From: Chloroflexia bacterium
GTDB lineage: Bacteria; Chloroflexota; Chloroflexia; QHBQ01; JADMIH01
Assembly: GCA_049580985.1 (NCBI GenBank)
Contig: JBAURA010000444.1
Span: 1 to 47,768, forward strand
Direction: 5' to 3'
Length of the DNA: 47,768 nucleotides
This document shows, piece after piece, positions 2,401-23,648 of the stretch. How positions within the stretch are numbered: the stretch's first letter is position 1; the number at the start of each line of letters is the position of its first letter. Under the pieces are notes generated by a model, which saw only the letters and a list, made by a program, of their open reading frames with translations, had not been told where the DNA came from and did not search any database. Both the position numbers and the translations under genes were made by a program.

Positions 2401-2469
2401 TCTATATTAGCCTCTTCCAGTTGTTTGACATTTTCGCACTTGTGCATCGTCCTAACCACGCTTCTCCCT

Positions 2470-5424: not shown

Positions 5425-5472
5425 CGACGCCTCCCTGGATCTGCTGTCTCAAACGGATGCTTCTATTGCTGA

Positions 5473-6351
5473 TCAGGATATCACATCTAATTTCTCAGAG
5501 GCTGTAGCCTCTATAGGGCCAGCGGCGAATTCCGCCTGCGGCGCTACGTTAGCGGAGGTAGCCCGCAGGATTGTTTTCAACTGGAAGAGAGTCAGGCCGG
5601 GGTGCTTACCCAGGATGCGAGTTACTATGCCTGTCATATGCGGCGCGGCAAAGCTATTGCCGGTAGCGGTGATGTAACCCCTGTTCAGCCAGGCCAACCT
5701 CACGTCTATGCCAAACGCCCCGAACTCCACGGGCGGACTGGGGTTGTAGTAGTAGAGGTAGGGATCCGGGGTGTCGTGGGAAGCCACAGAGATAACCGAG
5801 GAGTAGACCGAAGGGAAACTGGGCACAGGCATATTATTGGCTGCGGTAACTAATATCGTATTCTGAAAGTATGCCTGGTCGGCAATCTCGTGAAAGAGCG
5901 CATAGAAGTCTTTCTTAGTGGTGCCGAGACTGAGGTTGCACACATGTATGCCGTTCTCAACGCACCAGCGGAGGCCGGCAGCGAATACGGCGCCCCGTCC
6001 GATCAGCCCCGCCCCCAGCACTCTCACACTGTACAGTTCGCATTCAGGCGCTAGCGAGCGGATGATTGCGGCGCAGGCCGTGCCATGTCCATAGAGGTCC
6101 TCATGCGGCTCCTCGTTGTATGTGATGTTACCTGCCCGCTCGCTTATTGCCACGTAGCCGTTTACCGGCCCGGCCACTGCGGGGTGGTCGGCATCTATAC
6201 CACTGTCAATCACCCCTACCTTGACGCCCTGGCCTGTGCTGTTCCTCCACGCCCACTCGCTATTGATGGCTTCAAGTGGCTGCAATGGAGCAAGCTGTTG
6301 GAGCGCTTCGGACGTGAACTGCCACCCCCATGCAGGTCTACGGGTTGTCAT
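5473..6351 (-). CDS. S8 (subtilisin-family) serine peptidase, no signal peptide or propeptide apparent
   Basis: 292-aa ORF. The catalytic triad contexts are present: VGVIDSGIDADHP (Asp), YGHGTACAAII (His) and TGNSFAAPHMTG (Ser). The N-terminus is not hydrophobic. It lies 9 nt downstream of the GAF gene and 48 nt upstream of the cyclase gene. Confidence 0.85.
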   Translation of the reverse strand: MTTRRPAWGWQFTSEALQQLAPLQPLEAINSEWAWRNSTGQGVKVGVIDSGIDADHPAVAGPVNGYVAISERAGNITYNEEPHEDLYGHGTACAAIIRSLAPECELYSVRVLGAGLIGRGAVFAAGLRWCVENGIHVCNLSLGTTKKDFYALFHEIADQAYFQNTILVTAANNMPVPSFPSVYSSVISVASHDTPDPYLYYYNPSPPVEFGAFGIDVRLAWLNRGYITATGNSFAAPHMTGIVTRILGKHPGLTLFQLKTILRATSANVAPQAEFAAGPIEATASEKLDVIS

Positions 6352-6360
6352 ATGCTGTCC

Positions 6361-7257
6361 CTATTCTGCCAACACCTGGGGACGTCCACGCAGGTATTCC
6401 AGGAACCCTGCCAGCACGGTTCTGCATAAAGCAATCCCTTCCTCGCCATACCCGGCGATCTGCTGGATCAACCCGGCCAATTCCAGGGCGCCTCTCAGCG
6501 CCGGCATCTCTCCGATAGCCTCTGAGATCAGGCGTGCCTCCTCCTCAGCACCCGAGGCCCCTCTTAGCAATTGCAAAATCAAAGCGTTCAAGTCTGTGTT
6601 TACGCGCGACATCTCCAGGGCCGCGGAGGCCTGGTTGGCGAATAAACCAAGTAGTTCTATGTCGGCTGCATTGAAGGCTGCCCCGCCCTCTTTGTCGAGC
6701 AATTCTAGGACGCCGATCACTTCCCCCTCGTAGAATAGCGGCATACAAAGTATCGTCTTGGGCACATAATCCACGGCACGCTGTATATCCTCGGCTCTAC
6801 GTATATCTTGATCGGCATTTGAGACAGCCATCGGCTGTCCCGTAACCGCCACCAGGCCTGCTATTCCATGTCCCACCGGCACTCTGAACTTCTTGACCTC
6901 CTCGGCTTTGCCTCCGATAGCTACCTCGAATATCAATTCCTCTGTGTCACGATCCAGCAAGAAGAGAGCCCCCGCCCCCGCGCGAATCACCTGAGCCGCC
7001 GTTTCCACGATCGACTCCAGCACCCTGGTGTGCCTGGTGGTAGAGGCCATGGTACCCGCTGAAGAGGCAAGGACCAGCGCGCGGTACAGGCCATCAGCGG
7101 CCTTATCGCCCTCTATCAGGCGTCTCAACCGTCGGATCTCCTCCTGGTCCCTTGAGACGCTGCCATCATCCTCGCCCCTGTCGCCCCTGCGCGCGGCATT
7201 TTCGGACCAATCTCCAACCATCAAGCGTCTCCCTCCTCTACTTCCCGGCTTGCCCAC
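6361..7257 (-). CDS. GAF domain-containing protein
   Basis: 298-aa ORF. An Arg/Gly-rich N-terminus is followed by a GAF-like core (LESIVETAAQVIRAGAGALFLLDRDTEELIFEVAIG ... GIAGLVAVTGQPMAVSNA ... ILCMPLFYEGEVIGVLELLDK). The annotated start is GTG. An in-frame ATG 12 codons downstream is an alternative start. Confidence 0.7.
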   Translation of the reverse strand: MGKPGSRGGRRLMVGDWSENAARRGDRGEDDGSVSRDQEEIRRLRRLIEGDKAADGLYRALVLASSAGTMASTTRHTRVLESIVETAAQVIRAGAGALFLLDRDTEELIFEVAIGGKAEEVKKFRVPVGHGIAGLVAVTGQPMAVSNADQDIRRAEDIQRAVDYVPKTILCMPLFYEGEVIGVLELLDKEGGAAFNAADIELLGLFANQASAALEMSRVNTDLNALILQLLRGASGAEEEARLISEAIGEMPALRGALELAGLIQQIAGYGEEGIALCRTVLAGFLEYLRGRPQVLAE

Positions 7258-7262
7258 GGTGA

Positions 7263-8180
7263 TCAGATTACCTGTATTGCGCGCCGTCCTTCTTTACCCT
7301 TCCCTTCTGTGGCGGGCCTGCGCGCCAGCACCTCACCAAAGATTATTGGCAGGTGCGAATAGTTGTATGCATGGAGCTTGCCGAACTCGGTGAGATTGGC
7401 CTTCTCACCAACTGTTTCAATCATACCTTTATAAAACCGATTTCCCACGGCCACCTGCCCCGCGTCCTCGTAGCTACCGTCGTGCCTGCCAAGATCACCT
7501 GTACGGATGTCGGTGAAGCCGGTTGTAGCCAGTACCGTAGCAAGCTGGCTCATAGTAGTTGTTCTGTAGACGTAAATGCGGTCAAACCGCGCCAGATCAG
7601 CCCGTTCTGCTAGGGTAAGTTCTCCCTCTCTGCAGAAGACGTCCTTGATGTAAAGAGTGCCCCCTGGCCTGAGTACGTTGAACACGCCGGAGAAGAGCCG
7701 TTCCATGTTATACGAATAGCCTGCGGTCTCCAAGAAGAGCACAACATCGTACGTCCCATCGGCGAAAGGCAGGTAGTGGTAATCCCCAATGTACACATTT
7801 ATCGCACCTGCTAGCCCCGCCTCCTGTACGAGTCCTGTGCCTATCTTGGCTTGCACAAAAGATAGGGTAATGCCGTCGATGCGAACCCTATCTATGGCCG
7901 AGGCGATGTCTATACTCGGGCCGCACACGCCACAGCCTGCGTCCAACACCCGATCGCCGGGCTTGATGCCGGCCATCGATGCACAATACAGGTTCGATTC
8001 TCTGGCTGCCTCGGCATTGGGGGCTGACTCGACCACCCCTTTTTCGACTAATCCCGACTGGATAGTGGTACCGACGCTCTTCAGATATGCGGGCGTGGAG
8101 AGGTCATAGTAAGCTCTGATCTCTTGGATGTACCCCAGGTCCGCCTCAATCTCAACAGCTCTACCCATAGACCTATCCAC
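7263..8180 (-). CDS. Class I SAM-dependent methyltransferase
   Basis: 305-aa ORF. Motif I is DRVLDAGCGVCGP. Post-I and motif II/III-like segments are YDVVLFLET and LRPGGTLYIKD. The start is GTG and the gene is first in the minus-strand operon. Confidence 0.8.
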   Translation of the reverse strand: MDRSMGRAVEIEADLGYIQEIRAYYDLSTPAYLKSVGTTIQSGLVEKGVVESAPNAEAARESNLYCASMAGIKPGDRVLDAGCGVCGPSIDIASAIDRVRIDGITLSFVQAKIGTGLVQEAGLAGAINVYIGDYHYLPFADGTYDVVLFLETAGYSYNMERLFSGVFNVLRPGGTLYIKDVFCREGELTLAERADLARFDRIYVYRTTTMSQLATVLATTGFTDIRTGDLGRHDGSYEDAGQVAVGNRFYKGMIETVGEKANLTEFGKLHAYNYSHLPIIFGEVLARRPATEGKGKEGRRAIQVI

Positions 8181-8395
8181 TATCTTTCTCTGCTACGTCT
8201 CATGTCGATCCTCACGGGCTATTTAGAGCAGCTAGCAAAACCTGTTCTAGGGGCGGGTTTGCAACCCGCCTCTACCCGCCTGCCACCCGGTTTAGTATGC
8301 ATTCTTAATGGGTGAGGGAAAGTTGAGAGACATCGCTAAATGCCCGGCAGGAAATTTCACCTACATCCCCTCCAGGCAAGGCAATCTTAGGAAGG

Positions 8396-8427
8396 ATATA
8401 ACATGTCATGGTGACAAAGAGGTGACA
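8396..8427 (-). promoter_or_regulatory. Two TGTCACC heptamers at 11-bp phasing followed by CATGTTATAT (putative SARP operator plus -10 region) upstream of the methyltransferase operon
   Basis: The minus strand reads TGTCACC tctt TGTCACC atga CATGTTATAT. The heptamers are at 8427-8421 and 8416-8410. The lanA1 promoter has the same geometry: TGTCACT acgg CATGTTATGA. Confidence 0.5.
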
Positions 8428-8498: not shown

Positions 8499-11400
8499 CT
8501 ACCCTTTTGACATCTGCAGGTACAGATCGACCAAGTCCTGGCGAGGATCTATATCCAGGTCGTCGCGCAGGCGGCGCTGCAACTTCTGATAGGCACGTAG
8601 GCCCGCCGTACGGTCACCTCGGGCCTGACACGCCTTCATCAACCAGAGGGTGCCGTCCTCGCTCCAAGGCTCCTGCTCGATCAACTGACGCATTACATGG
8701 GCGCAATCGTCCGGTCTGCCAACCTCGAAGTAGATGATACCGAGGCGCAGCAGGATATCCCGGTAACGAGTGCTCAATTGCTCTCGCTTCGGCATCGCCC
8801 ATTCAGCGTAGGGGTTATCGGCAAGGAAGTCACCCGTATAGAGAGCTACCGCCTTTTCGAGATCAGAGACGGAGTCTAACTGCGAGGATTGCTGAGTGAA
8901 CATCACGTTATCTACGGTGGAGCCACGGGGTAACACTAACTGGTAAGCGCCATACGCAGGCTGTACGTAGCGAGAAGGGAACCCGGAAGGTATCTCAGGC
9001 TCAAGGGCATGGCGCAGACCCGCTACGGCCTGGTGCAGGTTCTTACGGGCGGCTGCGAGCACACCGCCCGGCCACAACACTTCTATTAGCTCCTCCACCG
9101 GCACGGGACGCGCCTGGTGAAGGAGATACTGGAACACGGTTTTGGAGCTTGCCCTGGGCCAGGAGACGGCTATCTTTCGGTGTAACACGGTGAAGCGTCC
9201 AAAGGTCTGGATGGAGAGTGGCTCCGGCGGAGATTCGGCCCAGGCCTTAATCGCCGCTTCCCGCGTCCGCTTCACGGCCAGGTTGGGGTGATCAACCAGT
9301 TCATTGATTGCTGCCAACACTTTCGGGTCTCCGGCTGCGCACAGTTTGCACAAGATGCTTGTCGCGTAGTCTCCTTCAAGCCCGGCGACTATCGCCTCAG
9401 TAAGCACTGGCACAGCTCGCACACCCAATCCTATGATCAACTGGCCGTGCCCGCCTGCCCGACACATTTTCAGCGCCTGAGAAGTGTGATGCTGCATTTG
9501 GAGTTTGTCGCCATTGCTCGATACCGAAATGACTGAGGCAAGATAAACGTGCGCCTGTGCCTGTGCGTATTGCGCGTTGGCTTGATAGAAGATGTCGAGC
9601 GCGGTGTTCAGGTGCATACGTGCTTCTTCCAGTTTACCAGCATCGGCAGCCGCCCCACCAAACACCAGGTGTGATAACCCTACTTCGTAGGGCACGCCCA
9701 GGGCGCGGCGTATGGCCATGCCCCTCTCGGCAGCCCGGAACGCCTCTTCATGGCGTCCTTCACGCCGTGCAAGCGCGCAGAGCCAATCAAGTGCCAGGGC
9801 GGTCTTGGGTCCGTTGTTCCGAGATTGCAGCACATCGAGCGCCTGGCTGAGGTGCAGATGCGCCTCGTTGAGCTGGCCATCGAGGAGATGGACGACACCC
9901 AGGATGAGGGTTGCCATCGCGGATTCCTCCCGGTGATCGCCGGTGTCGGCCAGGTGAAGTGCGGATTCCGCTAGCGCCCGCGCTTCTAAGCAGTCGCCGC
10001 GCAGCAAATGGATATATGCCACTGAGTTGAGCATTTCAGCTCTCTCCTCGTGCAAGCCCTGGCTCTCGCCCAGTTTCAGCAGCATCGCATACCCTGCCAG
10101 TGCCCCCTCGAAGTCGCCCAGCCTGTAACGCAGGTCTGCATTGTGACGATGCACCCTTAGCAGGGTGGTGACCAAGTTGCTACGTTCCGCAAGCTCCAAC
10201 GCCTCTTTTATCCCCGCCTGCACTTCCTCGATTGGACCTTCTACCATGTAGACGGATAAAGCCAGGGTCGAGAGCACCAGCGCTTTGTCGGAGTCATTCT
10301 CCGCGAACAGAAGGGCTTTCTTCAAGCTGATAGTGGACTCTGTGTAACGGCCTTGCTTGCTTAGCCAGTTGCCGAAGCCGTACAGGCTGAGAAAGATGGC
10401 ACCGCGATCTTCGGCCGTTCTCGAGGAAATTTCTGCCTGCCGGTAAAGGGTTTCGGCGCCAAGCAGCAGGTTATCGAACAATTGCGAGCGAGCCTGGATC
10501 AGGAGCAACCAGGGGTGGCTGGCAGCGATAACTTTCGGAAACTCCTTGACCCAACGCTCCAAACGCATGTACTGGCCGGCGGATAGGGTCACCTGGCACA
10601 TCTTGCCGAGCAAGGTTGCCGCCTCATCGTACTCACCAGCCGCCAACAGGTGGCTCATTGCCAGATCAGTCTCCTCTTTCGAGATATGGTGGGCAGCCAG
10701 TTGCCTGTGCAGAGCATGCACGGCGGCAGGCTCCAGCAGGTGCATTTGCTGGCGCAGGTACTCTCGAAAAAAGGTGAGATAGCGATAGGAAGGTTGCGTT
10801 GTGCTACCATCGTCCCCTTCTACGGAGTAAACTTCGGTGTACACACGATGCCGCTCGATTTGGAACAGGGCGCTCTCGGTACCCTTGATCCTGAGGGCGC
10901 GGCAGAGGGCCGGGTCCACCTGGTCCAGGATGGAGGTGTGCGTCAGGAACACCACAGCAGGAGTAGGGAGATGCCTCTCCATCTCCTCCCGCAGGTAGGT
11001 AGCGACAATATGCTGGATGGACCCCAGTCCCGCAATAGCACGCTCCTCATTTACCTCCGTTAGCTCAGGCCGTCCTGGATCGAGCGCACCGGCAAGAATT
11101 ACCAGGCCCGTGATCCACCCTTCCATGTAGACATCGATGATGTTGAGCGCCTTGCCATCGACCTTGCAACCGGCCGTCGACAGAAGAAAAGCCGAAGTCT
11201 CCTCCGGGCTTAGCCTTAGATCACGAGCGGCTAACATACCCACCATGCCCTGCGCCCACAGTTTTGCCAGGCTCAGCAACCGGGGAGAGCCCCACGACCC
11301 GGCTATCATGCGTAGGGCGGGAGGCGAGTAATCGATGAGTCTCACCAGCAAGGCTTGAGCCGTGCGGTCCACCAACAGATGCAGGTTGTCGACAAAGAGA

Positions 11401-12071
11401 TAATAGTAGGGATGGGGAAGCGGTAATATGGTCAGCTCGTTGAGGAGGTGGGCGAGCGCTTTCTCCGGGTCGATGGTATCGAGTGGCTCTCCCAGTCCTG
11501 GGACAGAACGGCGTAGCGATGCGTGGAGATGCAGTACAAACAGCAAGGGGTTATTGTGCTCACGCCCGATGGTAAGCCAGGCAGCTGGTATATTCGCGGC
11601 AAAGCCGGCAAGCAACATCGACTTGCCGTAACCAGGTGGGGCTGACACTAGTGTCAGTTTATGCTTTTGTACAGAGTCGGCCAGTTGCCGATAGAGATGC
11701 GGACGCTGGAACAAACCGGCAGAGGGCGTAGGAGGCGTACACTGTGAGGCCAAAACCCACACCGGGTCTGGGGTACTTACGACGCTAATCTCTGGCACGG
11801 GCGCTACAGATGGACTAGGCGTGGGAGGAGGATAAACCAGTCCGTAATTGTCAAACTCCTGGGTGCTTGGGTCTGCAAACATTGGCTGTGATTCCTCTGT
11901 TGGGGCGCTAGATAGCTTTGTAATTATTGCATGGTGTCTTATGTACCGGGCATCGTAAACCTCCACAATCCTCTTAGGGCCACTCCACCAAGCCTGTATG
12001 CGAAGGGAATGCCACGTTGCAGGATCGTAACACACGATCCTAGAGTGTCTTTCAGGTTGGCCTCGTGACAA
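8499..12071 (-). CDS. Large transcriptional regulator: P-loop ATPase (MalT/LAL-like) + TPR region + C-terminal SARP module (OmpR-type winged helix + BTAD)
   Basis: The longest ORF is 1190 aa with a TTG start. A better-supported start is the ATG at 11882 (MFADPST), preceded by GAGGA.
- Walker A: LVSAPPGYGKSMLL.
- Long TPR-like helical middle region.
- C-terminal winged helix: LSIQTFGRFTVLHRKIAVSW..KTVFQYLL..PVPVEELIEVLWP..ARKNLHQAVAGLRHALEP.
- BTAD: LEKAVALYTGDFLADNPYAEWAMPKREQLSTRYRDILLRLG...GLRAYQKLQRRLRDDLDIDPRQDLVDLY. Confidence 0.8.
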   Translation of the reverse strand: MSRGQPERHSRIVCYDPATWHSLRIQAWWSGPKRIVEVYDARYIRHHAIITKLSSAPTEESQPMFADPSTQEFDNYGLVYPPPTPSPSVAPVPEISVVSTPDPVWVLASQCTPPTPSAGLFQRPHLYRQLADSVQKHKLTLVSAPPGYGKSMLLAGFAANIPAAWLTIGREHNNPLLFVLHLHASLRRSVPGLGEPLDTIDPEKALAHLLNELTILPLPHPYYYLFVDNLHLLVDRTAQALLVRLIDYSPPALRMIAGSWGSPRLLSLAKLWAQGMVGMLAARDLRLSPEETSAFLLSTAGCKVDGKALNIIDVYMEGWITGLVILAGALDPGRPELTEVNEERAIAGLGSIQHIVATYLREEMERHLPTPAVVFLTHTSILDQVDPALCRALRIKGTESALFQIERHRVYTEVYSVEGDDGSTTQPSYRYLTFFREYLRQQMHLLEPAAVHALHRQLAAHHISKEETDLAMSHLLAAGEYDEAATLLGKMCQVTLSAGQYMRLERWVKEFPKVIAASHPWLLLIQARSQLFDNLLLGAETLYRQAEISSRTAEDRGAIFLSLYGFGNWLSKQGRYTESTISLKKALLFAENDSDKALVLSTLALSVYMVEGPIEEVQAGIKEALELAERSNLVTTLLRVHRHNADLRYRLGDFEGALAGYAMLLKLGESQGLHEERAEMLNSVAYIHLLRGDCLEARALAESALHLADTGDHREESAMATLILGVVHLLDGQLNEAHLHLSQALDVLQSRNNGPKTALALDWLCALARREGRHEEAFRAAERGMAIRRALGVPYEVGLSHLVFGGAAADAGKLEEARMHLNTALDIFYQANAQYAQAQAHVYLASVISVSSNGDKLQMQHHTSQALKMCRAGGHGQLIIGLGVRAVPVLTEAIVAGLEGDYATSILCKLCAAGDPKVLAAINELVDHPNLAVKRTREAAIKAWAESPPEPLSIQTFGRFTVLHRKIAVSWPRASSKTVFQYLLHQARPVPVEELIEVLWPGGVLAAARKNLHQAVAGLRHALEPEIPSGFPSRYVQPAYGAYQLVLPRGSTVDNVMFTQQSSQLDSVSDLEKAVALYTGDFLADNPYAEWAMPKREQLSTRYRDILLRLGIIYFEVGRPDDCAHVMRQLIEQEPWSEDGTLWLMKACQARGDRTAGLRAYQKLQRRLRDDLDIDPRQDLVDLYLQMSKG

Positions 12072-12395
12072 CAGGTAACGAGCTCAAACCATAGACTAAA
12101 CCCATGGCTCACTACGCATGCGCCCTCATTATCGGGTATGGTAATAGCCGTGAAGTATAGTATTGTGTGCTGGGAAGTATCGAAGTATACCAACTGGCTT
12201 CGGAAAAAGCAAGAGGTTAATGCCCGTAGCTGCCAGCCTTTTCTTCCTAAGACCATTGACGAGCTAGGGGAACTGGTGATATTCTATGCCACTACAATCT
12301 GGTACCTTGTGCCTGGGAGTCTGCACGGCGCCTCTGGGGCAAAGCGGTTAGCGATGCCTGCACGAACATGAATATCGACTTCGAAGGAGTCCTCT

Positions 12396-15157: not shown

Positions 15158-15166
15158 CGCGTGCTA

Positions 15167-15220
15167 TGTCACCTAATTGTCACCTTGCTGTCACCTTTTT
15201 GTCACTACGGCATGTTATGA
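15167..15220 (+). promoter_or_regulatory. Four TGTCAC[C/T] heptamers at exact 11-bp spacing plus an extended -10-like element upstream of precursor gene 1
   Basis: TGTCACC at 15167, 15178 and 15189, and TGTCACT at 15200, each separated by 4 nt. These are followed by acgg CATGTTATGAC, which contains TG-n-TATGAC. Heptamer direct repeats with 11-bp periodicity are the known SARP binding-site architecture. Confidence 0.55.
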
Positions 15221-15341
15221 CTCCGTCTGCAGAGGACTGACCATAACGTTTAGGAGTCCCCGATATTGAACCCTCCTGAACAGCAGGCCAAATGGATCTG
15301 CCGAGTGACAAACATACCAACCAGCAAAAAAGGAGACTAAA

Positions 15342-15644: not shown

Positions 15645-15691
15645 GGTACCCTCAGTTTGCAGGCGGAAGAGCCATGCAAACTGAGGGTACC
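15645..15691 (+). terminator. 17-bp perfect stem-loop between the precursor and synthetase genes (probable attenuator or partial terminator)
   Basis: GGTACCCTCAGTTTGCA (15645-15661), a 13-nt loop, then TGCAAACTGAGGGTACC (15675-15691), followed by only TTT. Confidence 0.55.
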
Positions 15692-15806
15692 TTTGCAACT
15701 ACAACTCATTAACTGTGCGTTTTTCAATGCACGCAGTTCAGGCCCTCTCCACCTCGCCTGCGTTTATCCATTACCTTTCGCCCCAGCACAGACCCAGGAG
15801 TCGCTA

Positions 15807-18623
15807 ATGACCGTCGATATAGAGCGACAAGCTATCCCCTCGGAAAACATCAAGATCACAATGGTGAATATTGAGGTGGATGGAGCGGTGATCGCCCTGC
15901 GCGACGGGATGGAGCCGGAGTGGTACCAGCCATTCCTCCTGGAGGCGCTCGCGGCAAAGGTCGCCCAGGGTGAGGACGTTTCCGCCTGGGGAATTGAGCG
16001 AATCACCAGGCCAAAGCAGCTTTGGCTATACATGAGGAACGGGCGAGCCGATACACCCACGCACGGTTGGAAGCTTCACGTGTCTGCGTCGCTCCTGTCA
16101 GCGCGAGCGGTCCTGGAGCGAACGCTCCCAATCCTCCTTTCCGAAGACGCCACTTTCAAACTGTGCGCATCCTCTGCCGCGCTCCTATTCTTGAACCAGG
16201 GGTTCGGGGGCATCTCCCAGGTCGGCAAGTTCATAACTATATACCCCAACAACGACGAACAGGCAGTGCGATTGGCAGTAGCGTTGGATGCAGCGACTCG
16301 CGGCGTGCGCGCGCCCTCTGTTCTCTCCGACCGACCCCTCTCTCCCGGCAGCCTGGTGCATTACAGGTACGGCAGCTTCCGCAAGCAGCATATGCACACA
16401 AAGCTTGGCCTGATCGTGTCGGCGTTCGAAGGGCCGGACGGCAAATTGGTAAAAGACCACCGCGTGCATTTCTACGTGCCGCCGGATGGGGCGCAGGATC
16501 CGTTTGAGGCGGCGGGGGTGGCGGCTCCGCCGAAGCGCCCGGTGCGCATCGTGGGTGGTCGCTATTTTATATTGGCCCCGCATCGTGAGGCGGCACGCGG
16601 AGTTATCTACGATGCTATCGACACCGAAGTACCCCGCCAGTGCATCATCAAACATGCCAGACGGAACGCCGCTATCACGATAGACGGACGAGACGCCCGT
16701 GACCGGCTGCGCAACGAGGCTGAGGTGTTGAAGCGATTGGCTCCCCACCCGGCCTTCCCCGAGTTCTACGGTCTGTTTGAGGAGGACGATGAGCCATACC
16801 TGGTGATGGAGCGCATCGAGGGTACCACGCTTGAGCGTAAGGTCCGGCACCTCACCGTCGAGCATGGCTCCGTGCCCGGTCCCCAGTTCCTGACCTGGAG
16901 CCGCCAACTAGCCTCAGCATTGGGCGCGATCCACGCGGCAGGCCTTATTTACAGGGATTTCAAGTCGAACAACGTGCTGGTAACGCCCGAAGGGCGGTTG
17001 CGTGTCATCGACTTTGAGTTGGCCTACGACCCTGATGGACCGCTCCCGCAGTACAACTTCGGCACGAGGGGATATATGTCGCCGCAGCACAAAGCCTGGG
17101 AGCATGCAGACGTCAGGGACGACGTCTACAGCTACGGTGCTCTCCTCTACTATCTGGCGACCGGAGCCGAGGCATCGAATGCGCCCGACGACTCAAACCT
17201 GTTGAGCCGTCCAATCGAGCTGCTGAATCCTGCCGTCGCCTCGGACCTGAGCGCTCTCATAGCGCGTTGCGTGCACCCTGAGCGTGAGCAGCGCTTCGGC
17301 AGTATATTCGAAATTGAGGAAGCGCTTGCCGGCATAGAGACGGCCACGGTGCCCCCGCCTGCATGGGGAGCTGAAACGCCTGTTGAACCGGATGAGGTTG
17401 CCGCCGGCAGGTACAGGACATGGGCACGGCGCATCGGCGATACACTGTGCCGCACTGCGCAACCGGCAGACAATGGGCAAGGACTGGTGTGGCCCGGCGC
17501 GAAATCGTCGGACGATGCGATCACTTCGAACGACATAATCCAGTCCAGGCACATCAACGTGGGGGTGGCCGGGCAGGTGCTCGCACTGGCCGAGTTGGTC
17601 CGGGAGTTCAATGACCCCGAACATCGCCGCGTGTTAGAGGGCGGGGTTCGGTGGCTCCTCTCTGAGCAACGACTTAGTGGAGAACCCATCTCGGGCTTGT
17701 ACGTGGGCGAGGCAGGCGTGGCTATAGCCCTCCTGCGTGCGGGGCAGGTGCTGAACGACCCCGACGTCATCCGGGCCGCCTCCAGCCTGGGCAAGTGGGT
17801 GGGCGGATTGCCCGACTCGTCCCCATGCATGTTCGTAGGCACTGCTGGTCGGCTTCGCCACCACCTGCTGCTGTGGGACGAAACAGAAGATCCTGAGCAC
17901 CTGGGGTTCGCGGAGGCGGCCGGCGAGCAATTGCTGGACCTGGCAGAGCCTGGCGCGGACAACGGCCTGAGCTGGCAGGCCCCGAATGACTTTGGGGTGA
18001 GTGCCGCTAACCTGGGATACGCGCATGGGGCCGCCGGGATCGGAGATGCCCTTATCGACTTGTACGAGGCCACAGGGGACTCGAAGTACCTGGAGGCGGC
18101 GGCGGGAGCCGCGCGTTGGATCGCCGCATTGGCCGTACCCACCACCGACGAGGGATCGACAGGTCTCAACTGGGCGCGCTCCGAGCGTACGCCTCTTACA
18201 GAAGGGTTCTGGTGCCACGGAGCGGTAGGCATCGGCATATTCCTGCTGCGTGCTTCGCAGTTCGGAATCCTGGAAGGGGCCTTCGAGTTGGCGCACCGCG
18301 CGGCGGTGACGGTAGGGAGGAACATGCGTTGGGCAATGCCCATCTACTGTCACGGCCTGGCAGGCAATATCGGCTTTCTGCTGGATATGTACCAGGCCAC
18401 AGGTGACTCTCGCTACTGGTCCGAGGCCCGCTCGCTAGGGCGAATTCTAGGTACGTTCGCCACAGAGATCAACGGCCTGTTCGTGTGGGGCTCAGAGACC
18501 CCTACCAAATTCACGTCTGTGTATACGGTCGGTTTCTCCGGCATAGCCATGTGCCTGCTCCGACTCAGCAATCCTGGACAGATGCCACAACAGTTGAGTA
18601 GAGCCGGTTTCCGATACCGCTAG
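15807..18623 (+). CDS. Class IV lanthipeptide synthetase (LanL-type: N-terminal pSer/pThr lyase, Ser/Thr kinase, Zn-ligand LanC cyclase)
   Basis: The ORF track starts at 15657, but that extension overlaps the hairpin. The ATG at 15807 has AGGAG 6 nt upstream.
- Lyase motif: HGWKLHVSAS.
- Kinase motifs: LIYRDFKSNNVLV, VIDFELA, GTRGYMSPQ.
- LanC motifs with Zn ligands: GYAHGAAGIGDAL, FWCHGAVGIG, IYCHGLAGNIGFL. Confidence 0.9.
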   Translation: MTVDIERQAIPSENIKITMVNIEVDGAVIALRDGMEPEWYQPFLLEALAAKVAQGEDVSAWGIERITRPKQLWLYMRNGRADTPTHGWKLHVSASLLSARAVLERTLPILLSEDATFKLCASSAALLFLNQGFGGISQVGKFITIYPNNDEQAVRLAVALDAATRGVRAPSVLSDRPLSPGSLVHYRYGSFRKQHMHTKLGLIVSAFEGPDGKLVKDHRVHFYVPPDGAQDPFEAAGVAAPPKRPVRIVGGRYFILAPHREAARGVIYDAIDTEVPRQCIIKHARRNAAITIDGRDARDRLRNEAEVLKRLAPHPAFPEFYGLFEEDDEPYLVMERIEGTTLERKVRHLTVEHGSVPGPQFLTWSRQLASALGAIHAAGLIYRDFKSNNVLVTPEGRLRVIDFELAYDPDGPLPQYNFGTRGYMSPQHKAWEHADVRDDVYSYGALLYYLATGAEASNAPDDSNLLSRPIELLNPAVASDLSALIARCVHPEREQRFGSIFEIEEALAGIETATVPPPAWGAETPVEPDEVAAGRYRTWARRIGDTLCRTAQPADNGQGLVWPGAKSSDDAITSNDIIQSRHINVGVAGQVLALAELVREFNDPEHRRVLEGGVRWLLSEQRLSGEPISGLYVGEAGVAIALLRAGQVLNDPDVIRAASSLGKWVGGLPDSSPCMFVGTAGRLRHHLLLWDETEDPEHLGFAEAAGEQLLDLAEPGADNGLSWQAPNDFGVSAANLGYAHGAAGIGDALIDLYEATGDSKYLEAAAGAARWIAALAVPTTDEGSTGLNWARSERTPLTEGFWCHGAVGIGIFLLRASQFGILEGAFELAHRAAVTVGRNMRWAMPIYCHGLAGNIGFLLDMYQATGDSRYWSEARSLGRILGTFATEINGLFVWGSETPTKFTSVYTVGFSGIAMCLLRLSNPGQMPQQLSRAGFRYR

Positions 18624-18689
18624 CAGGGGGTTTCTTAGCACGGTCGAGTGAGTAGACGGACACGATTGGAAGAGAAGGGTAGAGGCAGC

Positions 18690-19754
18690 ATGATCACTTC
18701 TACAAGTAACATCCTGGCTGAACACCTGCATAGGGCCGCCGGTGCTTACCGGCACGGCAAACGCCACCGTGTCTCTGCCGGTACTTCCACTGCCGTCGGC
18801 TTCGACCAGCTCCTGGGGGCTGCCATATTGAAGCATGCCTCCCCCAGGGAGCAGATGCTCATGAGTGCCGCCCTGGTCGCCCGCACCAGGGGTCTCGCGG
18901 CCGTGCGCAAGGGCGACATGGAGGTAGCCGAGGCGAACCTGCGCACCAGTCGTGACATTCTGGAAGTGCCCTGGCTTTCAACCGAGAGCCATGCTCTGCT
19001 TGCCTCATTCCAGGAGGCAGCCGAGGCCTTCATTGACTTTCGGTGCGGCCGGCATGACCTCGCCAGAAAGCGCGTTTTTCGCGCCATGTCGGCAGATGGC
19101 ACCCTCCTTTCGAGAGATGGATACCATGTCCTCGAATTGCACCGGGTACAGCTTGGACACAACCTGGCACGCGTCGATGCGAACGCGGGCGAGCCGGAGC
19201 GAGCTGCCCGCATACTAGCGGGCCTGCTCACCTATCTTGAAGGGGAGAGCGTAGCATGGCCTTTCCCCGATTACACCTACACTGGCAAAGCAACGGTGGA
19301 CGACTTGCCCGAGGAACAAGTGGCCGACCTGTTCATTCAGCTGACGAGCGAACTGGCGTTGTTGCTGGACGGCCAGGGGCGAGAGGAGGGGCTGGCACTG
19401 TTCGCCCCGGTCGTGGCGCATGCAGAATTGAAAGCAACTCGGCGCTGCGGACGGCACCCATCCGCGCACGCATGGCTCAGCCTGAAACTGGCCTACCTGG
19501 AGCGGAACGTGGTGGGCTTCCTGGAAGGCGCTCAGGAGGTACTGGCAGATGGCCCCAGGGAAGGCTCCCTTCTCTGGTATGCGACTGCTACCGATCTATA
19601 CAGGGAATGCGCCCGGCTGCTTGAGGACTGCCCAGCCGAGGCGAGCTCGCTAAGGAGCGAACTCGCCGAAGACGCTGTATCGTGGATCAGGGTACCGGCA
19701 GGACTCAAGGCCGGTGCCGGAGTAGCCGTGATGAAGCAACCGGCTCCCGCCTAA
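18690..19754 (+). CDS. Hypothetical helical (TPR-like?) protein inside the lanthipeptide locus
   Basis: The ORF track gives 18648..19754. The ATG at 18690 is preceded by AGAGG. The sequence is Ala/Leu/Arg-rich and predicted helical by eye. I find no motif I can assign. Confidence 0.55.
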   Translation: MITSTSNILAEHLHRAAGAYRHGKRHRVSAGTSTAVGFDQLLGAAILKHASPREQMLMSAALVARTRGLAAVRKGDMEVAEANLRTSRDILEVPWLSTESHALLASFQEAAEAFIDFRCGRHDLARKRVFRAMSADGTLLSRDGYHVLELHRVQLGHNLARVDANAGEPERAARILAGLLTYLEGESVAWPFPDYTYTGKATVDDLPEEQVADLFIQLTSELALLLDGQGREEGLALFAPVVAHAELKATRRCGRHPSAHAWLSLKLAYLERNVVGFLEGAQEVLADGPREGSLLWYATATDLYRECARLLEDCPAEASSLRSELAEDAVSWIRVPAGLKAGAGVAVMKQPAPA

Positions 19755-19830
19755 GACCCGGCACGGCGTAATGTAATAGCCGGTAAAGCCGGTAAAGAAT
19801 GTGGCAAGCTTGGAGGCAGAGGAGGCCGCT

Positions 19831-22800
19831 ATGCGCGGAGAAATGGGGCCCGGTATAAGCACCAGTTTGAGTCCAGGCGGCACCGTTGGCCCGGACTGGC
19901 ATAATCTACAGGGCAAATGGGTGGCGGTGCACGCGCCACAGGGCACCTACGCCGCCAAGCGCGCACCCTTGCTGCTACGCGAGGCCGAGCAAGTGGCCGA
20001 TGCCGTGGAACGGCTCCTCAAGCCCGACAAGCACCCGGATGGGAAAGCCGACATATTCTTGCTGGATCCCACCGCCGGTCTTGTCGAAGTGGGAGAAGAA
20101 GGCGAGGGAGAGGAACCCGAGGTGCAAGGCTACGCGGCCTCCTTTATGACGCCGGCGGCGGACACCGGCAGGTCTATTGTGCGGGTTGTGCGCCCCGAAG
20201 CTCCCGGCGAGGCGATAGCTCACTCCCTTTCGCACCTCCTTATCACCAAGTGGCTTGGCACGTCAGCCGGGTCCAGCCTTTTGTTTACGAGCGGTATCGC
20301 AGGCGTGGCGAACGCCCGCGCCGGCTTGGGAGAGTCTATCCAGGCATGTGACGAGTGGGTGCGGGCCGAGTTGGCGGCGGGCAGGCCGGTATCGGTGTTG
20401 AGAGCGGCGCGGCAGGAAGACCGCGACGGAGGAAGCATCGCAGCAAGTGAGGCGGATAAGCGCATCTCTACCTCCTTTGTAAACTACCTCATCGAAACCT
20501 TCGGGATAGTATCTCTCCGGCAATTCCTGGCCGGTTACGACCCGGACCGCCGCGATCAAGCCGCCATCAACGCCTACCAGAAGCCGATAGGCGCACTTGA
20601 GGAGGCATGGGTCAACACCCTCCGGCGCTCCTCCAGTAGCACCTCTATTTGGGGCTCGTTCCTGCGCCACATCATACCTCTGCTTAAGCCCTACCGGCTC
20701 CGCCAGTTGGAGGTGCTCCTCTACATGTTCCTGGGGCTGTCGTACGGTATTGTACTGCCCCTGTCGGGCAAGTACCTGATCGATACCGTAATCCCCAGCA
20801 ACGACCTCGGCCAGTTAGGTCTGTTCGTGCTTGGGCTGCTGGTGTTATACGTTGTGAACGCCCTGGTGGGTATGCGGCGCGGATATCTGACCAGCTGGAT
20901 CAACCAGGAGCTTATAAAGCGTCTCGACGAGCGGCTCTTCGCCCACCTGCAACGGCTGCCCCACACCTTCTTCGCCCAGATAAAGGTGGGCGATATCATG
21001 ACCCGCTTTACCAGCGATATGGCGATGGTGCAAACTGCGATACAGCAGGTGACCAGTACGGGGCCATTCATGGTGCTTACCGGACTGCTGGCTGCAACTA
21101 CCGTGATTATTCTCAGCCCTATCCTGGGAAGCCTTGTGCTACTTATCGTGCCGCTTTTCCTTCTCACCTATGTAACACTAGGCTCGCGCCTGCAAAAAGC
21201 CAGCACCCAGCGCCAGAAAATCCTGGGCGAAGTGATCAGTTCGTTGCAGGAGAACGTCTCGGCGCACGCCGTAGTGAAGGCATATGGGCTTGAGAAGAAG
21301 TCCCTTTCAATGTTCCGAACAGGCCTGGAGGCGCTCCAAAAGGCTTCGTTGCGCACGACCAAGATCGCTGTGCTCTTTGAAACAAGCACAAGCCTGGCGG
21401 TCACGCTGGGCCAGCTGATGGTACTGGGAGTGGGCGGCTACCTGGTGATGCAGAACCAACTCACTATAGGCACGCTGCTGGCTTTCGTGGGCCTCCTGCC
21501 GTCCCTGATCCAGCCTATCATGTCCCTCTCCAGCATAGGACAGACTGTCAAGACAGCCTCGGGAGCGATCAATCGTGTGACCGACCTGCTTGAGGAACCG
21601 GTGACCGTGGACGACAAGCCTGCTGCTGTGGACCTGCCCACGTTGAGCCGAGAGATCCGTCTTGAGGAGGTGGGCTTCTCATATGGCTCGGGCAACCCTA
21701 TCTTGAACGGCTTGAGCCTGACGATCCCTGCCGGAGCAAACGTGGCTATCGTAGGGCCATCCGGTTCCGGCAAGAGCACTATCGTAAGCCTGCTGATGCG
21801 CTTCTACGACCCTGAAGAAGGGAGTGTCCTATTCGACGGCCATGACCTGCGGGACGTGAAGCTAGCTTCACTGCGCAGCCAGATCGGATTGGTATTTCAG
21901 GATACATTCATATACGACACCACCGTCAGAGAGAACATCGCGCATGGCAGGTCAGGAGCTACCGATGTGGAGATTGTGGCTGCCGCTAAGGCCTCCCAAT
22001 TGCACGAGTTTATAGAGGCGCTACCGTCCGGCTACGACACCGTGCTGGGCGAGCGGGGCGTGCGTATGAGCGGGGGCCAGCGACAGCGCCTGGCGATTGC
22101 CAGGGCGTTGATTCGCGACCCACGAATCCTGGTACTCGATGAAGCTACTAGCGCCCTCGACTCGCATACCGAGCGAGAGATCCTGGACACGCTTGACGAC
22201 GTGGCCAGGGGGCGAACGGTGATCAGCATCACCCACCGGCTCGCTATCGCCGCCGCCGCCGACTATATCTTTGTGCTGGAGCGTGGGCGGCTGGTGGAGG
22301 AGGGAAACCATGCTACTCTCGTAAAGGCGGGCGGGTTGTACTCCAGGTTGTATGCAGAGCAGACCAGCGGAGTTGCTCTCCCGGATGGCTCGAGCGTCGG
22401 TCTCGATCAACTGAGGACTGTGCCTCTCTTCGGCGGCTTCTCGGATCCCCTCCTCACCTCCCTAGCCCGTAAGATGGTGCGTGAGCGTTTCTTCGTTGAC
22501 GAAGACGTGGTGCGTGAGGGTGAGCCGGGGGACAAACTGTACGTCGTGCAACGGGGTAGCCTGGAGGTGCTGGTGGGAGCGCAGGGCGAAGAGCGCAAGG
22601 TAAACTCGCTCCATCCCGGCGAGTACTTTGGTGAAATGGCGCTGCTGACAGGTGAGCCACGCGGTGCTACGGTGCGTGCCACCGAACCCACCGAGGTGTT
22701 CAGCCTTTCGAGGCTGGACTTCCTCAACCTGGTGGAACAGGAGGAGGCCCTACGAACATCGGTGCGGAATACCCTGGAGAGCAGGCGCAAGGCGCTGGAT

Positions 22801-22848
22801 CTGGTACGTGCGGGCAGTGCGCAGCCGCAAGCGCAGCGGCTCAAGTAG
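19831..22848 (+). CDS. ABC exporter (TMD+NBD) with an N-terminal peptidase-MA-like (degenerate HExxH) domain and a C-terminal cyclic-nucleotide-binding domain
   Basis: The ORF track starts at GTG 19801. The ATG at 19831 has GGAGG 5 nt upstream.
- ~290-aa N-domain containing AIAHSLSHLLITKW.
- Six-helix ABC membrane region: LLYMFLGLSYGIV..., IKVGDIMTRFTSDM.
- Walker A: GPSGSGKST.
- Signature: LSGGQRQRLAIARAL.
- Walker B: ILVLDEATSALD.
- CAP/cNMP domain: LRTVPLFGGFSD...GEYFGEMALLTGEPRGATVRA. Confidence 0.88.
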   Translation: MRGEMGPGISTSLSPGGTVGPDWHNLQGKWVAVHAPQGTYAAKRAPLLLREAEQVADAVERLLKPDKHPDGKADIFLLDPTAGLVEVGEEGEGEEPEVQGYAASFMTPAADTGRSIVRVVRPEAPGEAIAHSLSHLLITKWLGTSAGSSLLFTSGIAGVANARAGLGESIQACDEWVRAELAAGRPVSVLRAARQEDRDGGSIAASEADKRISTSFVNYLIETFGIVSLRQFLAGYDPDRRDQAAINAYQKPIGALEEAWVNTLRRSSSSTSIWGSFLRHIIPLLKPYRLRQLEVLLYMFLGLSYGIVLPLSGKYLIDTVIPSNDLGQLGLFVLGLLVLYVVNALVGMRRGYLTSWINQELIKRLDERLFAHLQRLPHTFFAQIKVGDIMTRFTSDMAMVQTAIQQVTSTGPFMVLTGLLAATTVIILSPILGSLVLLIVPLFLLTYVTLGSRLQKASTQRQKILGEVISSLQENVSAHAVVKAYGLEKKSLSMFRTGLEALQKASLRTTKIAVLFETSTSLAVTLGQLMVLGVGGYLVMQNQLTIGTLLAFVGLLPSLIQPIMSLSSIGQTVKTASGAINRVTDLLEEPVTVDDKPAAVDLPTLSREIRLEEVGFSYGSGNPILNGLSLTIPAGANVAIVGPSGSGKSTIVSLLMRFYDPEEGSVLFDGHDLRDVKLASLRSQIGLVFQDTFIYDTTVRENIAHGRSGATDVEIVAAAKASQLHEFIEALPSGYDTVLGERGVRMSGGQRQRLAIARALIRDPRILVLDEATSALDSHTEREILDTLDDVARGRTVISITHRLAIAAAADYIFVLERGRLVEEGNHATLVKAGGLYSRLYAEQTSGVALPDGSSVGLDQLRTVPLFGGFSDPLLTSLARKMVRERFFVDEDVVREGEPGDKLYVVQRGSLEVLVGAQGEERKVNSLHPGEYFGEMALLTGEPRGATVRATEPTEVFSLSRLDFLNLVEQEEALRTSVRNTLESRRKALDLVRAGSAQPQAQRLK

Positions 22849-22934
22849 GTGGCTGCGTGCAGCTTTCTCACTTGCCCGTTTCGCGCGTGAGGAATTAGTG
22901 TTCTATAGAAAGTTACGATAGGAGGTAAACAGCG

Positions 22935-23195
22935 ATGGTTAAGCCAAGTGTAGATGAGATCAGGGCCGTAGCGGCGCAGATAGTAGAACGCGCAAACCGC
23001 GACCCGCAGTTTATGGAGCAGCTTAGGAACGATCCGGAGACGGTGCTCCTTGATGCAGGCCTCCATGAAAGCGCCGTAGGAGACTTTATGCGGTCAGCAG
23101 GCCTCATGCCTGAGGTGCAAGGCTATATCCTGGAGGACCTGGATGTGCCGTGCCAGTACTCGTGTCTGCCTAACACGCATGGGGGAATAGGCTAA
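22935..23195 (+). CDS. Lanthipeptide precursor 2 (NHLP-like leader)
   Basis: 86 aa with an ATG start. AGGAGG lies ~9 nt upstream. The leader reads EIRAVAAQIVERANRDPQFMEQLRNDPETVLLDAGL, followed by a PEVQGY motif. The C-terminal region is ILEDLDVPCQYSCLPNTHGGIG. Confidence 0.75.
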   Translation: MVKPSVDEIRAVAAQIVERANRDPQFMEQLRNDPETVLLDAGLHESAVGDFMRSAGLMPEVQGYILEDLDVPCQYSCLPNTHGGIG

Positions 23196-23333
23196 GGGCG
23201 AATAACCAGTAAGCCGGCATGCACACCGGCCTCACCGAGCGATGTGCACCTTAGCGGGCCTACGCGAGTCAGCATTGGCCGACTCGTGCAAGCATTTATT
23301 GTCCCAATCTAGACGAACAAGGAGGTCTAAAAG

Positions 23334-23645
23334 ATGAGTTCGGATTCCAACAACCAGCAAAGCAACGAAATCAGAGAAGTAGCCCACAGAATTCTCGAAC
23401 GTGCCAAGAGCGACCCAAATTACCTGGAGCAACTCAAGAGCGATCCGGAAGCCACGCTCGCGCGGGAGGGTCTAAGCGGCCCGGTAGTCACGCAGCTAAT
23501 AGGCGAGTTTGGGCTGGTAGAGGTAGAGGGGTATTGCGATTTCACTTGTGACTATAGTTGCAACACTGGCACCTGCCAGCTCACTTATTGCGCCCATATT
23601 CCTCAAACCGGAGGGCCGATGGAGACGCAAGTAGTTGGGGGTTGA
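23334..23645 (+). CDS. Lanthipeptide precursor 3 (NHLP-like leader, five-Cys core)
   Basis: 103 aa with an ATG start and a GGAGG RBS. The leader reads EIREVAHRILERAKSDPNYLEQLKSDPEATLAREGL, followed by a VEVEGY motif. The core is CDFTCDYSCNTGTCQLTYCAHIPQTGGPMETQVVGG. The stop codon is 3 nt before the second LanL start. Confidence 0.8.
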   Translation: MSSDSNNQQSNEIREVAHRILERAKSDPNYLEQLKSDPEATLAREGLSGPVVTQLIGEFGLVEVEGYCDFTCDYSCNTGTCQLTYCAHIPQTGGPMETQVVGG

Positions 23646-23648
23646 TGA

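Follow-up and report, generated by a model that had tools for sequence, protein, structure and literature searches.

The binding sites of SARP-family activators are direct repeats with a spacing of 11 or 22 bp, and 8 bp separate the 3' repeat from the -10 element (PMC10936776). On the afs box two SARP protomers of AfsR are bound side by side, from -40 to -19, and the promoter-proximal protomer holds region 4 of the sigma factor instead of a -35 contact being made (PMC10936776). The sites of DnrI, ActII-ORF4, and PimR contain three repeats, and a review of the family describes N-terminal SARP domains only, from actinomycetes only (PMC10972967). The Pho box, with the core CTGTCAT (PMC4415409), is bound by another winged-helix family, and PhoP and AfsR share sites at afsS, pstS, and glnR (PMC10936776, PMC4415409). 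In this work we analyzed a 47,768-nt stretch of DNA from a Chloroflexia bacterium (contig JBAURA010000444.1; "the window" hereafter means this whole stretch), in which an array of four TGTCACC-type heptamers precedes the first precursor gene of a class IV lanthipeptide cluster (site 1) and a nearby gene encodes a large regulator that ends in a SARP module.

Site 1 occupies positions 15167-15221 of the plus strand and reads TGTCACC-taat-TGTCACC-ttgc-TGTCACC-tttt-TGTCACT-acggca-TG-t-TATGAC. The earlier note on this DNA, made by a model from the letters and a list of open reading frames (ORFs), had described four heptamers with an 11-bp period, and their starts are indeed 15167, 15178, 15189, and 15200. 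It had also put the last repeat 8 nt from a TG-n-TATGAC element; the element is present, and the distance has to be corrected, since TG lies 6 nt and the hexamer 9 nt past the end of repeat 4 at 15206. The gap becomes 8 nt once the heptamer frame is moved by one base. Four direct repeats exactly 11 bp apart correspond to the shorter of the two spacings found at SARP operators, and the rule invoked in that note, namely 11-bp repeats over the -35 region, agrees with site 1, where the 3' repeat abuts the -10 element and there is no -35 element (PMC10936776). The four-repeat pattern occurs once in the window even when 3 mismatches are allowed, and in 0 of 100 dinucleotide-preserving shuffles. The lone heptamer TGTCACY is not enriched (12 copies in the window vs 10.3 expected), and 6 of the 12 copies sit in two arrays, site 1 and a second one described below. 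A sigma-70 promoter scan called no canonical -35/-10 pair on the relevant strands at either of the two sites, as expected for an activator-dependent promoter. The transcription start site (TSS) of site 1 is predicted at approximately 15228-15229. An Rfam scan of the whole window gave no match, so the 114-nt leader is not a known riboswitch.

The second array, which had been missed in the earlier note, lies on the minus strand (8427-8395) and reads TGTCACC-tctt-TGTCACC-atgaca-TG-t-TATATC (site 2). Its heptamers are followed by the atgaCATGTTAT motif, the same as at site 1. The composite pattern TGTCACY-N6-TGNTAT is found in the window only at sites 1 and 2 (expected number 0.18), and none of 100 shuffles reaches two occurrences; a search of the window for TGTCACY-N4-TGTCACY that tolerated up to 2 mismatches gave no additional site. 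One promoter design is used twice, on both sides of the regulator gene.

Both sites are kept in relatives of the window. A contig that is 99.86% identical (L122) carries both of them unchanged. L121 is a syntenic contig of ~90% DNA identity, with a regulator 89% identical to that of the window, and it also keeps both: site 1 with its -10 element differs by 1 substitution in 55 nt, located in a spacer, compared with 23 in 120 nt of the 5' untranslated region (5'UTR; Fisher p = 0.0015), and site 2 differs by 1 substitution in 35 nt compared with 42 in 201 nt of flanking sequence (p = 0.008). A related cluster (L256) has a LanL protein of 64% identity and a regulator of 37% identity, the latter across the 500 residues that are available. 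In it, the gene for the orthologous 87-aa precursor is preceded by TGTCACC-tttt-TGTCACC-gccc-TGTAAGT-ggcgggtgc-TAAGGT, and a MAFFT alignment places this sequence in the same register as repeats 2, 3, and 4 and the -10 element of the window; elsewhere the intergenic region has diverged, the ribosome-binding site excepted. The earlier note had named missing repeats upstream of orthologous precursor genes as an observation that would speak against an operator; they are kept in L121 and, in register, in the diverged L256.

The regulator gene lies on the minus strand between the two sites. Its ORF is open from a TTG at 12071 (1190 aa), and an ATG at 11882 gives a protein of 1127 aa; the ATG is probably the start, because this length equals that of the ortholog P0001. 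The ATPase-TPR-SARP make-up that had been claimed for 8499-12071 was borne out by a Pfam BTAD match (4e-19), an AlphaFold2 model with a pLDDT of 94.6, and structural matches to AfsR and EmbR. The SARP module forms the last 250 residues (~940-1190 of the 1190-aa ORF), not the N-terminus as in the published small, medium, and large classes, and the host is a Chloroflexia bacterium rather than an actinomycete. In a phmmer search with the last 275 residues, AfsR was matched at E = 1.2e-4 and EmbR at E = 4.6e-4. The model, computed for the last 254 residues with 18 homologs, shows helices and strands in the sequence typical of a winged helix, with a helical bundle after it, and its sole Foldseek matches in the PDB at E <= 0.001 are AfsR (8k60, 8hvr) and EmbR (2fez), with E values of 9e-12 to 7e-10 and TM scores of 0.72-0.74 across ~250 residues. 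The N-terminal 40% of the protein is ~30% identical to many LuxR-type MalT/LAL proteins, with which it shares TPR_MalT, WHD_MalT (scored on the orthologs of the regulator), and a C-terminal DNA-binding domain. In MalT/LAL proteins that domain is a GerE/LuxR-type helix-turn-helix; in the regulator no GerE match was found at the C-terminus, and the SARP module (winged helix plus BTAD) is there instead. Going by the model, the regulator is in effect a MalT with a SARP module in place of the LuxR helix-turn-helix, and with such a replacement the operator would be expected to have SARP/OmpR-type geometry. MalT-dependent promoters likewise contain several direct-repeat boxes.

The C-terminal placement of the module is common. 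A C-terminal SARP module is present in ~130 of the nearest 150 cluster representatives (P0241-P0389), among which ~45 proteins are 1030-1180 aa long and a large class measures 640-690 aa. No paper on C-terminal SARP modules was found by a full-text literature search of incomplete coverage. In L122 (ENA ERZ25039588, contig_283), one extra A at 12704-12763, corresponding to window position ~9167, breaks the regulator in two, a STAND protein of 946 aa and a SARP/BTAD ORF of 201 aa that stands alone; either a homopolymer error in long reads or a genuine natural split may account for it.

When the recognition helices of homologous regulators were compared by alignment to AfsR residues 84-92, the helix was found to vary together with the heptamer at the regulator locus. 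ARKNLHQAV, the helix of the window regulator and P0004 (ARKNLHQVI in L256), goes with TGTCAC, and so does ASQNLRRAV, which is shared by P0003, P0005, P0006, and P0007 and whose loci were read for P0003 and P0006 only. The helix ARRALNTTF of P0008 is accompanied by CCGTTAT, and LTAFHTAL of P0011 and P0022 by TGCAAAC. The pattern TGTCAY-N5-TGTCAY is present in every regulator locus with an N-L-(H/R)-(Q/R) helix, and a scan of the regulator loci with other helices (L245-L246, L248-L255) found it in none of them; L254 (P0021), which has no clear repeat, was left out of the co-variation argument. Such co-variation is expected of a locally encoded, sequence-specific binder and would not be shown by a global regulator. 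A large SARP of the N-terminal type in a Thermomicrobiales metagenome-assembled genome (MAG; L087), a chance find of the genome scan described below, has the helix FTNLRQTL and adjoins TGTCACG x3. The geometry is retained as well: in ten other loci of the regulator family, 9-10 nt separate the heptamer from the predicted -10 element, and a TGnTAT element is equally distant at site 2 and in L244, TGc or CGc variants taking its place in L243 and L247 (Table 1). The genes served by these sites differ. Downstream of the site in L243, L244, and L247 are a conserved ORF of 63-67 aa and the gene of a giant protease, unrelated to lanthipeptides, and a divergent oligopeptide ABC operon lies opposite the site in L248 and L252. 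At the loci of the homologous regulators concerned, the operator is always followed first by the gene of the conserved 63-67-aa protein (M-D/E-x-R-E/D-T-F-V-L-x-L-F-x-D-P-x-R-S-A...), which has no assigned family, and then by a gene for an S8, Lon_C, or beta-helix protein of very large size.

In every feature that can be seen in the sequence, the operator is of the standard SARP type. It resembles the afs box of the afsS promoter in its 11-bp direct repeats, in the predicted span of repeats 3-4 (-40 to -19 with a TSS near 15229), and in the lack of a usable -35 element (PMC10936776). AfsR and the other large SARPs (SARP-NOD-TPR) are similar to the window regulator in combining the SARP fold with a STAND/NOD ATPase and TPR in one polypeptide. 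They are different in domain order, since the SARP module here is C-terminal, after a MalT-type STAND part (WHD_MalT, TPR_MalT), and the order in AfsR is reversed. Other differences from AfsR are the Chloroflexia host in place of an actinomycete, four repeats instead of two, the heptamer TGTCACC, and a regulator that is situated within a class IV lanthipeptide cluster, whereas AfsR is global. Regulators encoded in their own cluster are also found among ActII-ORF4, DnrI, RedD, and PimR (a SARP-LAL protein), and the sites of this group, too, are heptameric direct repeats with 4-nt spacers. The small SARPs and PimR have their SARP domain N-terminally and come from actinomycetes, and their heptamers (CGGCAAG for PimR, TCGAGXX for the ActII-ORF4/DnrI type) differ from TGTCACC. 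At their sites the 3' repeat is ~8 bp from the -10 element (PMC10936776), compared with 9 nt here in the TGTCACY frame.

We therefore consider it probable, judging from the sequence, that the four heptamers serve as operator for a promoter that lacks a -35 element and depends on an activator, and that they would be bound by the neighboring 1127-aa STAND-SARP protein. A SARP-type operator with the neighboring regulator as likely activator had been proposed in the earlier note, and this proposal is supported by the 11-bp geometry, the conservation, the second site, and the helix-heptamer co-variation. A different binder, a response regulator of the PhoB/OmpR family encoded elsewhere, could treat the repeats as a Pho-box-like site and respond to phosphate limitation or another two-component signal; we regard this as unlikely, and the local regulator as much the likelier primary binder because of the evidence from co-location and co-variation. 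Both sites of the window flank the SARP-type regulator gene. A TGTCAC box is co-located with a SARP-type regulator in six lineages, and in four lineages besides that of the window (L256, L243, L244, and L247), with unrelated targets, the same box adjoins the regulator gene. The box tracks the SARP-type regulator across loci, and a different recognition helix goes with different heptamers in the same geometry; a global PhoB would not co-vary with a local regulator. The window contains no pst or pho genes and there is no response regulator gene nearby. The base-contacting helix residues also differ (RTVDVHIRRLR in PhoB, KNLHQAVAGLR here).

Several observations nevertheless weigh against the local regulator as the binder. 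Heptamers of the form TGTCAC(C/T) with 4-nt spacers and an 11-bp period next to a -10 element also have the make-up of a Pho box (CTGTCAT; PMC4415409); the boxes bound by PhoB and PhoP share the half-site TGTCA(C/T), head-to-tail binding of winged helices, and the replacement of the -35 element (PMC4415409). Scanning 185,579 genomes for TGTCAC-N5 x3 yielded at least 120 arrays across many phyla, the matches listed comprising operator-like sites as well as perfect tandem arrays of 11-mers. Such arrays occur in many phyla without any SARP gene, and a SARP homolog was found at 1 of the 120 matches listed, so the motif alone does not identify the binder. Among the matches listed, ppk1 (L013), a PHO4 phosphate transporter gene (L026), and an OmpR-type regulator gene (L052) have arrays upstream of them, and arrays in Chloroflexia MAGs (L022, L064) adjoin an OmpR-family regulator gene and are upstream of Usp and Na/Pi-cotransporter-like genes. 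A Pfam tally of the genes downstream of 66 arrays was mixed, including ppk1, PHO4, the OmpR-type regulator, ABC transporters, and many unrelated families, and was not dominated by Pho functions, a mixture that neither establishes nor refutes a Pho regulon. An E. coli-type Pho box ends ~10 nt before the -10 element. As to the regulator itself, the Pfam Trans_reg_C match on the winged helix is below threshold (E = 0.08), so that the assignment of this fold rests on the model together with weak phmmer matches. The helix-heptamer correlation compares about five TGTCAC lineages with four others, and some of the loci are mutually orthologous and not independent. Phosphate control of secondary metabolism and competition between PhoP and AfsR at shared sites are established (PMC4415409, PMC10936776), and in a softer variant it is possible that a SARP-type protein and a PhoB/OmpR-type protein bind overlapping sites here, as AfsR and PhoP do in Streptomyces. 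With regard to the arrays in other Chloroflexota MAGs, one adjoins the gene of an OmpR-family response regulator with the helix DMLRQLVRRLR, and arrays are located upstream of Usp, Na/Pi-cotransporter-like, or MgtC genes or of a sulfate-type ABC operon; they may represent a separate TGTCAC regulon, perhaps a Pho-like one.

Two more explanations were weighed. It is very improbable that the repeats are bound by another regulator of the window, i.e., the XRE-HTH/NB-ARC/TPR protein (29496-32123), the AAA/TPR/LuxR protein (32893-35484), or the cyclase/NB-ARC/HTH_77/TPR protein (2470-5424), all of which are of STAND type and encoded close to genes for ribosomally synthesized and post-translationally modified peptides (RiPPs). 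STAND proteins such as MalT do bind direct-repeat arrays, but the MalT box is a different motif, and the helix-turn-helix domains of XRE and LuxR type typically act as dimers on inverted repeats. In L243, L244, and L247 the TGTCAC box and the SARP-type regulator are kept, and no XRE/NB-ARC, LuxR-type, or cyclase/NB-ARC gene was called there. An 11-bp head-to-tail array abutting the -10 element is the signature of OmpR/SARP winged helices (PMC10936776). The chance that the array has no dedicated binder and arose by neutral 11-bp tandem duplication (replication slippage), or consists of overlapping -35-like TTGTCA hexamers, appears to us extremely small. Perfect tandem arrays of TGTCAC-containing 11-mers are common in genomes and metagenomes, and a metagenome scan with the stricter TGTCACC pattern listed almost only tandem 11-mers with no similarity to the window. 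The spacers of site 1, however, all differ (taat, ttgc, tttt, acgg) against near-identical heptamers, the sole L121 substitution lies within a spacer, L256 retains the heptamers despite diverged flanks, and the independent second site has the same -10 spacing. TTGTCA shares 5 of 6 positions with the -35 consensus TTGACA, but none is placed 16-18 nt from a -10 element and the sigma-70 scan called no promoter on the strand of site 1.

With the STAND-SARP protein as activator, we infer binding, the TSS, activation (not repression), stoichiometry, and signal as follows. ATP and possibly a ligand would release or oligomerize the protein, by analogy with MalT and AfsR; the STAND part would set the availability or oligomerization of the SARP modules, comparable to the ATP-relieved autoinhibition of AfsR. 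The SARP modules would then bind head-to-tail, one per 11-bp unit and on the same face of the helix. With a TSS near 15229, the two promoter-proximal units (repeats 3-4) would cover approximately -40 to -19 and repeats 1-2 would extend from -62 to -41. The proximal protomer would hold sigma region 4 and so replace -35 recognition, and RNA polymerase would open the extended -10 element TGtTATGAC and start near 15228. The transcript would run through precursor 1 and, probably, the entire operon of LanL, ABC exporter, precursors 2-3, and LanL2. Through site 2, the operon for methyltransferase, GAF protein, S8 protease, and cyclase would come under the same control.

Table 1. Coordinates of the operators, genes, and related loci (window positions unless a locus is named)
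Feature	Position	Strand	Remarks
Heptamer repeat 1, TGTCACC	15167..15173	+	About -62 to -56 if the TSS is near 15229; unchanged in L121, not kept in L256
Heptamer repeat 2, TGTCACC	15178..15184	+	Conserved in L121 and, in register, in L256
Heptamer repeat 3, TGTCACC	15189..15195	+	Occupies the -35 place; conserved in L121 and L256
Heptamer repeat 4, TGTCACT	15200..15206	+	Promoter-proximal; conserved in L121; degenerate TGTAAGT in the same register in L256
Extended -10-like element, TG-t-TATGAC	15213..15221	+	TG 15213-15214, hexamer 15216-15221, 9 nt after repeat 4
Second operator, TGTCACC-tctt-TGTCACC	8410..8427	-	72 nt past the regulator stop codon; conserved in L121 and L122
Extended -10-like element, TG-t-TATATC	8395..8403	-	Hexamer 9 nt after the last heptamer
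Proposed cognate activator, MalT-like STAND ATPase + TPR + C-terminal SARP module	8499..11882	-	Walker A GYGKS; AAA_16, TPR_MalT, TPR_12
C-terminal SARP module, OmpR-type winged helix + BTAD	8499..9263	-	Recognition helix AARKNLHQAVAGLRHAL
Site-2 operon: methyltransferase, GAF protein, S8 peptidase, cyclase-NB-ARC-TPR protein, PRTase/PQQ beta-propeller protein	691..8180	-	Same gene order in L121 and L122
Precursor peptide 1, 87 aa	15342..15605	+	NHLP-clan-like leader; Cys/Ser/Thr-rich C-terminus; first gene downstream of the operator
Class IV LanL-type synthetase 1 (RamC_N-kinase-LanC)	15657-18623	+	Follows precursor 1
LanL-type synthetase 1, 368-aa protein, ABC exporter with cNMP-binding domain, precursors 2-3, LanL-type synthetase 2	15657..26480	+	
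Precursors 2 and 3	22935-23195, 23334-23645	+	
Regulator locus L244 (P0004)			~31% identity to window regulator; TGTCACC-cgtt-TGTCACT-cagccgtgt-TATTCT, adjoining the regulator gene
Regulator locus L243 (P0003)			~31% identity to window regulator; TGTCACC-cgta-TGTCACA-cccatctgc-TATACT, adjoining the regulator gene
Regulator locus L247 (P0006)			~31% identity to window regulator; TGTCACC-catt-TGTCACA-cctgttcgc-TATACT, adjoining the regulator gene
Regulator locus L245 (P0008)			28% identity to window regulator; CCGTTAT-cctc-CCGTTAT, 10 nt, TACACT, adjoining the regulator gene
Regulator loci L248, L252 (P0011, P0022)			~25% identity to window regulator; TGCAAAC-tttc-TGCAAAC, 9 nt, TAGGAT, adjoining the regulator gene
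Regulator locus L251 (P0015)			23% identity to window regulator; TGAAGCC x2, 10 nt, TATATT, adjoining the regulator gene
Conserved 63-67-aa protein	L244 5597-5791; L243 7079-7270; L247 3884-4087; L245 13642-13845		
TGTCAC x3-4 arrays in other Chloroflexota MAGs	L022 105-1271; L064 1622-4748; L036 7218-7998; L089 5-1944		11-bp spacing

The genes around the two sites are listed in Table 1. The leader of precursor 1 gave weak matches to the NHLP clan, below the curated cut-offs. The genes from LanL-type synthetase 1 to LanL-type synthetase 2 are probably co-transcribed with precursor 1, because the gaps between these same-strand genes are short and they have no TGTCAC array of their own. In the leader of the site-2 operon, a short ORF (GTG at 8360, 22 codons) was rejected as a candidate gene; its start codon is not conserved in L121. 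The same leader contains, at 8222-8305 on the minus strand, an 82-bp segment with a GC-rich hairpin (arms 8248-8259 and 8263-8274), which is present in the window and L122 and absent from the 90%-identical L121, and which looks like a small inserted element or a 5'UTR attenuator. A cyclic-nucleotide theme runs through the region, with the cNMP-binding domain of the exporter (19801-22848), the cyclase fused to NB-ARC-TPR (2470-5424), and the GAF protein (6361-7257); this set is also found in L121 and L122, and L256 has the cyclase and exporter only. The window further contains class V-like lanthipeptide genes, in which an APH-type kinase gene (36571-37689) overlaps the longest ORF of a HopA1-LanC fusion (37293-39968), and upstream of them are the genes of the two STAND regulators with XRE and LuxR DNA-binding domains. 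Between the regulator gene and a divergent 377-aa/FAD-oxidoreductase operon, GAAGTAT(A) direct repeats start at 12152, 12174, and 12182 (region 12147-12189). In L256, AAGTAC(ATCC) repeats are located downstream of the regulator gene (1678-1760), together with tandem TACCTGCTAC 11-mers at ~1788-1810. The GAAGTAT(A)-type repeats are possibly a second operator for a different regulator.

What is unusual about this system is the host phylum, the reversed domain order with the MalT-type STAND part first and SARP last, and a heptamer that coincides with the Pho box. More tentatively, and with somewhat less than even confidence, we suggest that the window regulator represents an undescribed, large class of inverted SARP regulators, in which the sensor is N-terminal and the SARP module C-terminal and which is common in Chloroflexota and metagenomes. 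In such a class three or four helix residues would set the specificity, N-L-(H/R)-(Q/R) for TGTCAC and other helices for CCGTTAT or TGCAAAC, and its members would act as on-switches of RiPP clusters, of operons for a small protein and a giant protease, and of peptide transporters. The box of the TGTCAC subclass would be indistinguishable from a Pho box, so that the lanthipeptide promoter could integrate STAND-sensed signals and OmpR/PhoB-type signals, as in the case of AfsR and PhoP. For annotation this calls for caution, in that TGTCAC arrays cannot be assigned to a Pho box or a SARP box by sequence alone.

The SARP mechanism would extend beyond the range described in reviews (actinomycetes, N-terminal SARP), to another phylum and a reversed domain order. 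The helix-to-heptamer correspondence suggested by the collected loci could allow operators to be predicted from regulator sequences in metagenomic gene clusters. For the uncultured Chloroflexia bacterium itself, the operator and its regulator are a candidate on-switch of the class IV lanthipeptide cluster, and in a heterologous host the precursor operon should be expressed from the 15160-15230 promoter once the regulator or its SARP module is supplied.

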